In this document: positions 1-2,037 of the stretch, in pieces | Position numbering within the stretch: position 1 is the stretch's first letter | How the letters are laid out: every line of letters starts with the position of its first letter | NCBI RefSeq assembly: GCF_003334815.1 | Contig: NZ_QOWO01000089.1 | From: Escherichia coli | GTDB lineage: Bacteria > Pseudomonadota > Gammaproteobacteria > Enterobacterales > Enterobacteriaceae | Length of the DNA stretch: 2,037 bases | Direction: 5' to 3' (one strand) | Notes under the pieces: generated by a model | Told to the model about the DNA's origin: nothing | Databases searched by the model: none | The model's input: the letters and a program-made list of their open reading frames with translations, nothing else | Position numbers and translations under genes: made by a program

Positions 1-846
1 AACCAGATGGACCCGGTGTACACGCCGGCGCGAAAAATCCACCTGTACCACTGCGACCATCGCGGCCTGCCGCTGGCCCTTATCAGCAAGGAAGGGACAA
101 CAGAATGGTGCGCAGAATACGATGAATGGGGCAACCTGCTGAATGAAGAGAACCCGCATCAGCTGCAGCAGCTTATCCGCCTGCCGGGGCAGCAGTATGA
201 TGAGGAGTCCGGCCTGTATTACAACCGCCACCGCTATTATGACCCGCTGCAGGGGCGATATATCACTCAGGATCCGATTGGACTGAAGGGGGGATGGAAC
301 CTGTATGGATATCAATTGAATCCGATATCAGACATCGACCCCTTGGGTTTATCTATGTGGGAGGATGCAAAATCGGGGGCATGTACTAATGGTCTTTGCG
401 GCACACTATCCGCTATGATAGGTCCAGATAAATTTGATTCTATAGATAGCACCGCATATGGCGCCTTAAATAAAATAAATAGCCAATCTATTTGCGAAGA
501 TAAAGAGTTCGCTGGTTTAATATGTAAGGATAATAGTGGCAGATATTTCTCAACAGCACCTAACCGAGGAGAAAGAAAAGGATCATATCCATTCAATAGC
601 CCTTGCCCTAATGGTACTGAGAAAGTATCAGCTTATCATACTCATGGTGCAGATAGTCATGGAGAATATTGGGACGAAATATTTTCAGGTAAAGATGAGA
701 AAATAGTTAAAAGTAAAGATAACAATATCAAGTCATTTTATTTAGGTACGCCCAGTGGTAATTTTAAAGCAATAGATAACCACGGGAAGGAAATAACAAA
801 CAGAAAAGGATTACCTAATGTCTGCAGAGTTCATGGTAATATGTAA
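1..846 (+). CDS. Rhs family protein, C-terminal portion (end of conserved core plus variable C-terminal toxin domain); 5' partial, ORF is open to the window start
   Basis: Frame 1 is open from nt 1 (aac cag atg...) to TAA at 844-846. The translation contains the conserved Rhs core end ...[45 protein letters not shown], followed by an unrelated AT-rich tail. The core portion matches E. coli RhsA/RhsB-type core ends as I recall them; which paralog cannot be decided from this window. Confidence 0.9.
337..351 (+). other. Rhs core / C-terminal tip junction motif DPxGL (DPLGL), predicted autoproteolytic release site for the toxin tip
   Basis: Codons gac-ccc-ttg-ggt-tta at 337-351 encode DPLGL at the end of the PxxxxDPxGL hyperconserved Rhs region. 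Nucleotide composition drops sharply just downstream. In Rhs/YD-repeat proteins this motif marks the core/tip demarcation and aspartyl autoproteolysis site (established knowledge). Confidence 0.8.
352..846 (+). other. Variable Rhs C-terminal toxin domain (Rhs-CT), about 164 aa, activity unknown
   Basis: Sequence after DPLGL ([17 protein letters not shown]...[22 protein letters not shown]...NVCRVHGNM) is AT-rich and unrelated to the core. It has six Cys and an HTH...SGKD arrangement (HTH at nt 637-645, SGKD at 685-696). Position and composition are typical of a displaced polymorphic toxin tip. Confidence 0.7.
805..810 (+). promoter_or_regulatory. Shine-Dalgarno-like element (AAAGGA) for the 818 start codon
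   Basis: aaagga at 805-810, 7-nt spacer, ATG at 818. It lies inside the 3' end of the toxin ORF, consistent with translational coupling. Confidence 0.4.
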
Positions 847-1201
847 AAAAATATTGTTTAGGAACTGTGTCATTGTATCTTTGTTTGTTTTTACATACAA
901 CACATGGGCGCAGTGTAATAATAATATTAAAATAATGCGCAAGTATGAAAGTGAAGGTAAATATACCGTTAGAAATTTGGTTAAAAATAAAGCTATAGCA
1001 TTGGAATTAGCTGAGATATATGTTAAGAATCGTTATGGACAGGATGCCGCAGAAGAAGAAAAACCATACGAAATCACTGAGTTAACAACAAGTTGGGTTG
1101 TTGAAGGTACCATTCACTTAGACCAAATTGCTGGTGGGGTTTTTATTATAGAAATAGGCAAAAATGATGGGAGAATTCTGAATTTTGGCCACGGAAAATA
1201 A
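818..1201 (+). CDS. Putative cognate Rhs immunity protein (127 aa), possibly with N-terminal signal peptide or membrane anchor
   Basis: ORF starts 29 bp before the toxin stop codon (818 vs 846) and is preceded by an SD-like AAAGGA. AT-rich like the toxin tip. N-terminus [32 protein letters not shown] has a basic n-region, hydrophobic core and a TWA-Q candidate cleavage site. Size and position match what I recall of yhhH downstream of rhsB in E. coli K-12, unverified. Alternative in-frame starts at 833 and 935 cannot be excluded. Confidence 0.6.
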
Positions 1202-1292
1202 GTATGTAAGGATAATCAAACATCGTGTGCGCTGATGGCAGAGTAGGTGGAGGACTCCAGACAGTCAAACGATAGAAAAAGATAGCCTTTAT

Positions 1293-1297
1293 GGAGG
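1293..1297 (+). promoter_or_regulatory. Shine-Dalgarno (GGAGG) for the ATG at 1306
   Basis: ggagg at 1293-1297, 8-nt spacer, ATG at 1306. The ATG at 1291 used by the ORF track overlaps this SD and is probably not the true start. Confidence 0.5.
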
Positions 1298-1305
1298 TTC
1301 CTGCA

Positions 1306-1689
1306 ATGTCAAATACATACCAGAAAAGAAAGGCAAGTAAAGAGTATGGTTTATATAATAAATGTAAGAAACTAAATGATGATGAATTATTTCGCTTACT
1401 TGATGATCGCAATTCCTTGAAAAGGATTTCATCTGCCAGAGTATTACAGTTAAGAGGGGGGCAAGACGCTGTTAGATTGGCAATTGAATTCTGCACTGAC
1501 AAAAATTATATCCGTAGAGATATCGGAGCATTTATACTCGGGCAAATATAAATTTGCAAAAAATGCGAAGATAATGTTTTTAATATTTTGAACAATATGG
1601 CATTGAATGATAAGAGTGCTTGCGTTCGAGCTACGGCAATCGAGTCAACGGCCAGGGAAAGATCATCAAAAGTTCACTTTTTGCACTAA
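1306..1689 (+). pseudogene. yibA: YibA-like HEAT-repeat protein gene (Rhs-associated orphan immunity-type gene), disrupted: in-frame TAA at 1549-1551 and 3' truncated
   Basis: Translation from 1306 (MSNTYQKRKASKEYGLYNKCKKLNDDELFRLLDDRNSLKRISSARVLQLRGGQDAVRLAIEFCTDKNYIRRDIGAFILGQI*) closely matches my recollection of the N-terminus of E. coli YibA, encoded next to rhsA. The same frame stays open after the TAA for 45 more codons (ICKKCEDNVFNILNNMALNDKSACVRATAIESTARERSSKVHFLH, stop at 1687-1689), indicating a recent nonsense mutation. Full-length YibA is about 280 aa, so the gene is also truncated. Confidence 0.6.
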
Positions 1690-1770
1690 ATAATTCGCAT
1701 TTTATGTTTAAAAATTGAGATATTCCTTATTACCTGAAGCTGTTTTTTATTGCTTATACATGATCAAATA

Positions 1771-1790
1771 CTCCTTACCTAATTAAGGAG
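1771..1790 (+). promoter_or_regulatory. Hairpin sequestering the transposase ribosome-binding site (stem ctcctta / taaggag, 6-nt loop); SD AAGGAG at 1785-1790
   Basis: ctcctta (1771-1777) is the exact reverse complement of taaggag (1784-1790), with loop cctaat (1778-1783). The 3' arm contains the SD located 6 nt upstream of the ATG at 1797. Such structures commonly limit transposase translation from read-through transcripts in IS elements. Confidence 0.5.
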
Positions 1791-1796
1791 AACAAA

Positions 1797-2037
1797 ATGG
1801 AACTTAAAAAATTGATGGAACATATTTCTATTATCCCCGATTACAGACAAACCTGGAAAGTGGAACATAAATTATCGGATATTCTACTGTTGACTATTTG
1901 TGCCGTTATTTCTGGTGCAGAAGGTTGGGAAGATATAGAGGATTTTGGGGAAACACATCTCGATTTTTTGAAGCAATATGGTGATTTTGAAAATGGTATT
2001 CCTGTTCACGATACCATTGCCAGAGTTGTATCCTGTA
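1797..2037 (+). CDS. ISAs1-family transposase (H-repeat-associated protein), N-terminal 80 codons; 3' partial, continues beyond window
   Basis: Not in the supplied ORF track because it has no stop inside the window. ATG at 1797 with strong SD; translation [80 protein letters not shown] matches my recollection of the N-terminus of E. coli H-rpt proteins (YhhI/YdcC/YbfD type, ISAs1 family), which classically accompany rhs loci. Confidence 0.85.

Follow-up and report, generated by a model that had tools for sequence, protein, structure and literature searches.

The 3' end of the Escherichia coli RhsB element: a probable record of toxin displacement, an orphaned antidote gene and a truncation at ISEc1

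The DNA analysed here (the window, all 2,037 nucleotides (nt) of a stretch of contig NZ_QOWO01000089.1, assembly GCF_003334815.1 of Escherichia coli) is the 3' end of the classical E. coli RhsB element, within the variable island between nikR and yhhJ. The best explanation of its structure, to which we give a probability of roughly 0.88, is that the tail of rhsB records at least four successive events. An ancestral Rhs element would have carried an RhsA-type (Ntox34) toxin tip followed by its antidote gene, yibA. A cassette made up of a Tox-JAB-2/DUF4329 tip and yhhH would then have entered by recombination, joined on its left within the core close to the DPxGL codons and on its right 10 codons short of the stop of the old toxin; this would have replaced the old tip and left yibA orphaned behind yhhH. 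The insertion sequence (IS) ISEc1 would by then have bounded the island on the right, and the 3' 60% of yibA, together with the distal orphans up to the IS, would have been lost in a deletion beside the left end of this ISEc1 copy or by recombination between it and another. Finally, the dead yibA fragment would have gained an AAA to TAA change, now nearly fixed in the lineage.

Identity and layout of the locus

The whole window was compared by megablast with 5426 complete E. coli genomes, the genome set for all counts given below. Full-length matches, in K-12 and many other strains, are 99.8-99.9% identical, and on every one of them the RefSeq labels read rhsB, yhhH, HEAT-repeat pseudogene and yhhI (ISAs1-like element ISEc1). 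At least 80% of the window is covered in 2786 of the genomes. The closest strains, ETEC4090 and others, stand at 99.9%; K-12 GM4792 differs at four of the 2037 nt (180, 343, 461 and 1119) and its match sits between nikR and yhhJ, which also flank the match in ETEC4090 and OSUCMP42NDM. The assignment to the 3' end of RhsB follows from this identity, the shared annotation and the common flanks. The locus is therefore already known, as the annotated rhsB element of K-12, and the preliminary description of the window, which had expected a variant of a known system, was right on that point.

That description had also read the window as a conserved core, an AT-rich tip, an overlapping immunity gene, a separately initiated immunity-like gene and an IS; all five are present, in that order and on the + strand (Table 1). 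The synteny comparison it called for places the yibA-like gene and the IS within the Rhs island between nikR and yhhJ, and not as separate insertions. The island runs from 8 base pairs (bp) past the nikR stop codon as far as that of yhhJ.

Table 1. Features of the 2,037-nt window.
Feature	Position (nt)	Strand	Basis and remarks
Rhs core, 3' end	1-351	+	RHS_core, TIGR03696, Pfam RHS; open reading frame enters across the 5' edge of the window
RhsB toxin tip, Tox-JAB-2/DUF4329, JAB/JAMM fold	352-846	+	Stop codon 844-846
Motif residues of the tip	E 505-507; H-T-H 637-645; S 685-687; D 694-696	+	
yhhH (Imm-NTF2-2)	818-1201	+	Pfam; RefSeq 'protein YhhH'
3' flank of the incoming toxin/yhhH cassette	1202-1253	+	Three-way alignment
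Vestige of the displaced RhsA-type (Ntox34) reading frame, last 10 codons and TAG	1254-1285	+	Alignment with rhsA; translation
Native 20-nt toxin-yibA spacer	1286-1305	+	Alignment with rhsA loci
yibA pseudogene (orphan Imm-HEAT), codons 1-115 of about 280	1306-1652	+	NF007244; DNA identity to yibA
ISEc1 left end (H-repeat element, ISAs1 family)	1653-2037	+	NCBIfam; annotation; crosses the 3' edge of the window
Left terminal inverted repeat, CAGGGAAAGATCAT	1653-1666	+	
Transposase gene yhhI, first 80 codons	from 1797	+	Preceded by a leader

The list of open reading frames (ORFs) gives nt 7-846 for the long frame that runs from the left edge. Its core part matches the last 115 positions (1147-1261) of the NCBIfam model RHS_core (expect value (E) 2e-68), as well as TIGR03696, the RHS-associated core domain (E 6e-25), and Pfam RHS. 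A boundary motif of the PxxxxDPxGL type (DPLGL) is encoded by nt 319-351 (amino acids (aa) 105-115), and the G+C fraction falls from 0.55 in the core to 0.37 in the tip, in agreement with the AT-rich tip of the preliminary description. The core of the window is 99.3% identical to that of K-12 rhsA up to about nt 323, and paralogous core copies lose homology at nt 324-354. A core ending in a PxxxxDPxGL-type motif, a variable C-terminal domain beyond it and a small immunity gene overlapping the toxin ORF (yhhH) are all found here, as in Rhs toxin loci.

A displaced toxin behind yhhH

The region behind yhhH was searched with nt 1202-1796 of the window, and a three-way alignment was made to two rhsA loci, those of FORC_041 and of CX05 (K-12-type). 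The window and FORC_041 have nt 1202-1253 in common, while the K-12-type rhsA of CX05 diverges until nt 1254, its match beginning at query position 53; the same 52 nt are missing from loci in which yibA still directly follows its RhsA-type toxin. This puts the right breakpoint of the recombination at 1253/1254. From nt 1254 to 1652 the window is 97-98% identical to the end of rhsA and to yibA, and the similarity stops at 1652. The first codons of this stretch encode DSRQSNDRKR*, to be compared with HSRQSNDKKR* at the end of K-12 RhsA, whose C-terminus is a Pfam Ntox34 domain (E 3.5e-43). An Ntox34 tail followed by the native spacer in front of yibA is exactly what would be expected to remain of a displaced toxin/immunity cassette.

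In experiments reported by Vlazny & Hill 1995 (cited in PMC3150448), YibA neutralised the C-terminus of RhsA, and Ntox34 was paired with Imm-HEAT by Zhang et al. 2012 (PMC3482391). Taken with the Ntox34 tail, these pairings identify the orphan as a truncated antidote gene that belonged to another Rhs toxin, with the tail of that toxin's ORF still attached.

The states on either side of the displacement are present in other genomes. In the rhsA loci of K-12 and CX05 Ntox34 is joined directly to yibA, as before the displacement. The rhsA locus (yibF...yibH) of FORC_041, EC11 and 1532MA holds the intermediate, with core, Tox-JAB-2 tip, yhhH, the same 104-nt junction, an intact yibA and more orphan modules; the gene order and the intact yibA were confirmed in these three genomes by inspection. 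The FORC_041 rhsA locus and the K-12 rhsB island are collinear at 98.3% over the whole stretch between the rhs start codon and the IS junction. The junction between yibA and the IS is present in 1815 genomes, and subtracting these from the 2786 that cover the window leaves at least 971 genomes having the toxin-yhhH-yibA stretch without that junction. A further step is seen at the nikR-yhhJ locus of TUM1886, where a newer tip and immunity gene lie at the core. Behind them come other orphans, the last 87 nt of the Tox-JAB-2 ORF (nt 760-846 of the window), a frameshifted yhhH, the Ntox34 tail, an intact yibA and a yibJ-like core fragment.

Serial displacement of C-termini, as the preliminary description had proposed, is borne out by the tail and spacer, the three intermediates and TUM1886. 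Newer cassettes are proximal to the core and older ones distal, also as it had said. The older ones were further said to decay with distance, and that part does not hold. Decay does not track the order of the layers, since in TUM1886 the frameshift lies in yhhH, the younger of the two genes, and yibA, the older, is intact. In the window the orphan is 97-98% identical to live yibA, which argues that age was not the cause of its breakage; the deletion associated with the IS is what killed it.

Several further features of these loci were recorded. The TUM1886 island (289-10800 of the extracted locus) is a long poly-immunity array behind a different Rhs tip. It contains a hypothetical protein (likely the cognate immunity protein), a YbbC/YhhH-family gene, a DUF6258 gene and pentapeptide-repeat fragments, besides the frameshifted yhhH, the intact yibA and the Rhs core fragment. 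An IS630 remnant and an ISAs1 copy with an internal deletion also belong to it. The distal part of rhsA in 1532MA (10074-12289 of the extracted locus) has an ISAs1 transposase, an orphan toxin with a tlde1 domain and an Imm57 gene, all three intact; Imm57 survives in K-12 and FORC_041 as pseudogene remnants only. In the extracted locus of FORC_041 a fragment at 9713-9945 is 77% similar to ISEc1, and the full-length rhs gene at the rhsA locus (annotated rhsB, 1409-5645) is marked as frameshifted, with yhhH and the orphan yibA intact.

Truncation of yibA and the history of ISEc1

The yibA fragment (yibA') has its own GGAGG and an ATG at 1306, in agreement with the separate initiation given in the preliminary description. 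Its two ORF pieces, 1291-1551 and 1588-1689, share one frame, and the YibA model NF007244 ('putative lyase', 285 positions) is matched at positions 1-81 (E 3.5e-31) and 96-126. A frameshift in yibA' was considered and rejected, the lesion being a single in-frame AAA to TAA change at 1549-1551 (codon 82), the sole disabling point change in the fragment. Identity to intact yibA is 98.2% at the DNA level, with 3 missense, 1 nonsense and 4 synonymous changes in 347 nt. Set against a full-length YibA/Imm-HEAT protein of about 280 aa, the frame stops at codon 82 and is truncated past codon 115, and RefSeq notes 'internal stop; incomplete; missing C-terminus'. Judged from its reading frame, the fragment is a predicted non-functional pseudogene of the YibA/Imm-HEAT family and not a working member of it.

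A residual function for the 81-codon ORF (1306-1551), retained as a mini-immunity protein or decoy against Ntox34-armed neighbours, would fit its preserved ribosome-binding site and start codon, the spread of the junction-bearing allele to 1815 genomes, and the view that orphan immunity genes are protective, intact orphan yibA being widely retained. Such an ORF would be about 29% of a HEAT-repeat protein, its nonsense codon postdates the truncation and has itself spread, which fits relaxed selection, and it carries three missense changes and a nonsense change alongside the four synonymous ones. K-12, moreover, has an intact yibA at rhsA. We consider a retained function extremely improbable, the least credible of the alternatives discussed here. 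Promoter and terminator matches in the window were no more numerous than expected from shuffled sequence and thus give no evidence for a separate yibA' promoter; an Rfam scan of the window (E<=1) gave no match.

Immediately after yibA' the IS begins. The 80 yhhI codons match NCBIfam transpos_ISAs1 (E 4e-18) and are annotated 'ISAs1-like element ISEc1 family transposase'. Unrelated ISEc1 copies align with the window only from 1653/1654, ydcC and others being 96-97% identical from nt 1653. The right repeat of the K-12 copy, ...GTAATCTTGCCCTG, is found 1293 bp further downstream, and 11 of 14 positions match between the left repeat CAGGGAAAGATCAT and the right repeat CAGGGCAAGATTAC. These features are those of ISAs1/ISEc1, of which the window has the left 385 bp only.

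The plainest account of this arrangement would be that ISEc1 transposed into an intact orphan yibA, making the IS the newest and an independent layer with no deletion. The break in yibA coincides exactly with the terminal repeat of the IS at 1652/1653, and IS copies are common here, with IS1 or IS3 inside rhsB or yhhH of some strains. Past the right end of the IS in K-12, however, yibA does not resume; what follows is the yhhJ-proximal flank, 150 bp running to the yhhJ stop codon, and the K-12 IS has no flanking direct repeat or target duplication. This right junction and the 150-bp flank recur in TUM1886, where the left end of the IS abuts the IS630 remnant 2 kb downstream of an intact yibA, with a possible decayed target duplication (AATAAAGGG on the left and AATACCGGA on the right). 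Contradicted by the right-flank sequence and by the TUM1886 junction, simple insertion was rejected and is very unlikely to be correct.

Because the divergent TUM1886 island has this right junction as well, the IS is long established at that edge of the island, and the junction with yibA on its left is the only recent one. The preliminary description was thus correct in placing the IS distal to the orphan, and not in regarding it as simply the last layer. The K-12-type left junction would be the product of a later deletion, either adjacent to the IS or by way of a second copy. With AAA substituted for TAA in the query, three of the 1815 genomes that have the junction matched at 100% identity and so lack TAA (OSUCMP42NDM, MFDS1016424 and S6aCHROMc), and in the first of these yibA' (6327-6677 of the extracted locus) is annotated without an internal stop. 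The nonsense mutation thus followed the truncation.

Weighing the proposed sequence of events

Of the four-event history, the comparison shows what the parts are, where they join, which intermediates other genomes contain and that truncation preceded the nonsense codon, while the direction of the toxin replacement, the mechanism of the deletion and the enzymatic activity are inferred. A number of observations weigh against this history. Detailed inspection covered just a few of the 5426 genomes. The three genomes with AAA could be revertants or recombinants. An IS-adjacent deletion is indistinguishable from insertion of a second ISEc1 in yibA followed by recombination between the two copies. 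The direction of the toxin replacement is argued by parsimony only, and an Ntox34-yibA pair could instead have re-entered a locus that held an orphan yibA. As regards a possible delivery of the toxin by a type VI secretion system, the RhsB N-terminus has DUF6531 and a weak, partial PAAR match (E 0.24), neither vgrG nor eagR was found next to rhsB in K-12, and K-12 and B strains are without such a system (PMC6730261). Finally, with rhsA and rhsB cores that are 99.3% identical, the displacement may have taken place either at nikR-yhhJ or at rhsA with later copying.

This last point admits an alternative that we regard as possible, at rather less than even odds. The composite could have been built at the rhsA locus or in another genome and then copied wholesale into the nikR-yhhJ island, so that what happened at the island was duplication and truncation; recombination across the nearly identical Rhs cores, or horizontal transfer, might have brought the composite there. 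The collinearity of the K-12 rhsB island with the FORC_041 rhsA locus and the near-identity of the K-12 cores are in its favour, as is the yibA-yibJ' stretch at the rhsB locus of TUM1886, collinear with the K-12 rhsA locus at 94.9%. Recombination between rhsA and rhsB is, besides, the classic 'rearrangement hot spot' event (PMC2935791). Import of this kind touches only the site, and a displacement is still needed to account for the Ntox34 tail and the orphan yibA. In addition, the nikR-yhhJ island has flanks of its own, namely the 200 bp 5' of rhsB and the IS-proximal stretch on the right, and because these flanks are common to the divergent K-12 and TUM1886 islands the composite would have been resident there for a long time. 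The displacement of an Ntox34 tip by the Tox-JAB-2/yhhH cassette, wherever it occurred, is retained here as the preferred reading.

The RhsB toxin tip and its immunity gene

The coding part of the tip is nt 355-843, and DUF4329 spans residues 148-266 of the ORF (Pfam E 3.7e-39). A full HMMER search of 1.84 billion representative proteins (clusters at 50% identity) found 730 relatives at E<=1e-3. In an alignment of 55 diverse DUF4329 domains E51, S111 and D114 are invariant and H95, T96 and H97 are at least 90% conserved; the conserved residues of the family are those of the JAB motif, E...H[ST]H...S..D. The Pfam match and these residues place the tip in Tox-JAB-2/DUF4329, with a JAB/MPN (deaminase-like) fold, and the structural neighbours ranked highest for it are all JAMM isopeptidases. 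A sequence search of the PDB with the tip gave only chance matches to internalin. Inspection of the N-termini of short DUF4329 homologues for secretion signals was uninformative, as most are fragments of Rhs proteins.

The domain was named Tox-JAB-2, with Imm-NTF2 family 2 as its partner, by Zhang et al. 2012 (PMC3482391). The statement in the preliminary description that the toxin's activity is unassigned thus fails for the family and stands for the biochemical activity alone. A nuclease or RNase function has been guessed in the literature by analogy with RadC (PMC3482391 among other sources), and no biochemical activity of Tox-JAB-2 is reported in the searchable literature. Searches on yhhH/rhsB, on ybbC/rhsD and on ybbC as a lipoprotein found nothing relevant. 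The tip is most likely a zinc-dependent JAMM-type hydrolase, a prediction from its fold and motif.

The overlap of yhhH with the toxin ORF is 29 nt, in different frames, and an AGGA lies 8 nt 5' of its ATG. Amino acids 60-127 of YhhH match Pfam Imm-NTF2-2 (E 5e-26). Its first 31 residues resemble a Sec signal peptide, charged and then hydrophobic and ending ...NTWA/QC (the slash marking the putative cleavage site), and the hydrophobic N-terminus is kept in homologues of 65-90% identity. From their sequences rhsB and yhhH would form a live toxin/immunity pair, a claim that shares the probability given to the history as a whole. In such a pair the toxin would be released from the Rhs shell past the DPLGL motif, and YhhH is proposed to neutralise it by binding.

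A possible periplasmic site of action

Seven of eight candidate immunity partners of DUF4329 toxins have export signals at the N-terminus. These are YhhH, YbbC, the TUM1886 paralogue (5223-5570 of the extracted locus) and four of five genes downstream of distant DUF4329 toxins, which have signal peptides or a lipobox-like start; the exception lies behind a cadherin-type carrier protein. The start of YbbC, MKYSSIFSMLSFFILFAC, contains a canonical lipobox (LFAC). In the toxins themselves, cysteines 57 and 84 covary in the 55-domain alignment (both in 28 domains, one alone in 0 and 4, neither in 23), and C10/C15 and C47/C157 do likewise, with Fisher values that ignore phylogeny.

The exported immunity proteins and the covarying cysteine pairs together point to action in the periplasm. 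We put it at an even chance that Tox-JAB-2 tips, including the C-termini of RhsB and RhsD, are disulfide-stabilised metallopeptidases of the JAMM type acting in the target periplasm, and not cytoplasmic nucleases or RNases; the JAMM isopeptidases that head the structural neighbours are a further basis for this reading. Their substrates may be isopeptide-like bonds of the envelope, such as peptidoglycan cross-links or the link between Lpp and peptidoglycan, and the exported immunity proteins may neutralise them in the same compartment.

The island in other strains

The gap between nikR and yhhJ is within about 1.5 kb in 1647 of the 5426 genomes, and the Rhs island is absent there; most examples among the matches listed have a hicAB toxin-antitoxin pair in the short gap, and in K56-43-un just about 8 bp separate the two genes. 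The nikR-yhhJ interval is a replacement site. Extra copies of IS1 or IS3 occur inside the rhsB, yhhH and yibA' region of some strains, and they show continuing IS traffic at the rhsB locus. In OSUCMP42NDM the rhsB coding sequence (1812-5867 of the extracted locus) is annotated merely 'DUF4329 domain-containing protein' and has 4056 nt, compared to 4236 nt elsewhere, which suggests an in-frame deletion of 180 nt in the repeat region.

Significance

The locus itself adds little to a displacement model that was published between 2009 and 2012. It is an unusually clean worked example of it, with the states before, after and one step further on of the same junctions all present in live genomes. It also shows that the decay of orphan immunity genes does not follow their age, the 'degraded' gene having been killed by an IS-associated deletion. 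The exported immunity proteins are the one lead worth following. If true, the periplasmic reading could redirect assays on a widespread and uncharacterised family, which includes two K-12 Rhs proteins, RhsB and RhsD, towards an envelope-targeting protease and away from a nuclease.

Comparison with known systems

The K-12 RhsB element (rhsB-yhhH-yhhI/H-repeat ISEc1, between nikR and yhhJ) is essentially the same DNA as the window. Gene order, junctions, the TAA nonsense codon and the position of the IS are the same and nothing of substance differs, although the window is not exactly K-12. The K-12 RhsA element (rhsA-yibA-yibJ-yibG...) has a core 99.3% identical to that of the window, and the last 10 codons of its toxin together with yibA are 97% identical to nt 1254-1652. 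It has the Ntox34 tip attached and an intact yibA of 843 nt, whereas the window has Tox-JAB-2 with yhhH and a truncated yibA.

A third K-12 pair, RhsD-YbbC, is at a different locus and has a core of a different subfamily from that of RhsB. The C-terminus of RhsD is also DUF4329 (E 2.6e-37) and YbbC is a paralogue of YhhH; YbbC has the canonical lipobox, whereas the N-terminus of YhhH is of the signal-peptidase-I type.

In the published model of Rhs displacement (PMC2935791; Poole et al. 2011, PMC3150448), new tips enter by recombination at the core/DPxGL boundary and remnants of earlier tips pile up downstream with immunity genes, as they have in the window. Classic orphan modules keep a stretch of core and the whole C-terminus, for example the yibJ-type fragment in TUM1886 and at rhsA, whereas the displaced toxin of the window is reduced to 32 nt.

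Beyond the Rhs elements, the tip has the fold of the JAMM/MPN+ zinc isopeptidases (AfJAMM, PfJAMM1, Rpn11, BRCC36, AMSH and CBASS Cap3) and of RadC, and their metal and catalytic motif, E...H-x-H...S-x-x-D, is complete in it. It is remote from all of them in sequence. The classic JAMM motif has a spacer of 7 residues between HxH and SxxD, whereas that of the tip has 13, and the tip differs further from the JAMM isopeptidases in its extra N-terminal helices and its covarying cysteine pairs.

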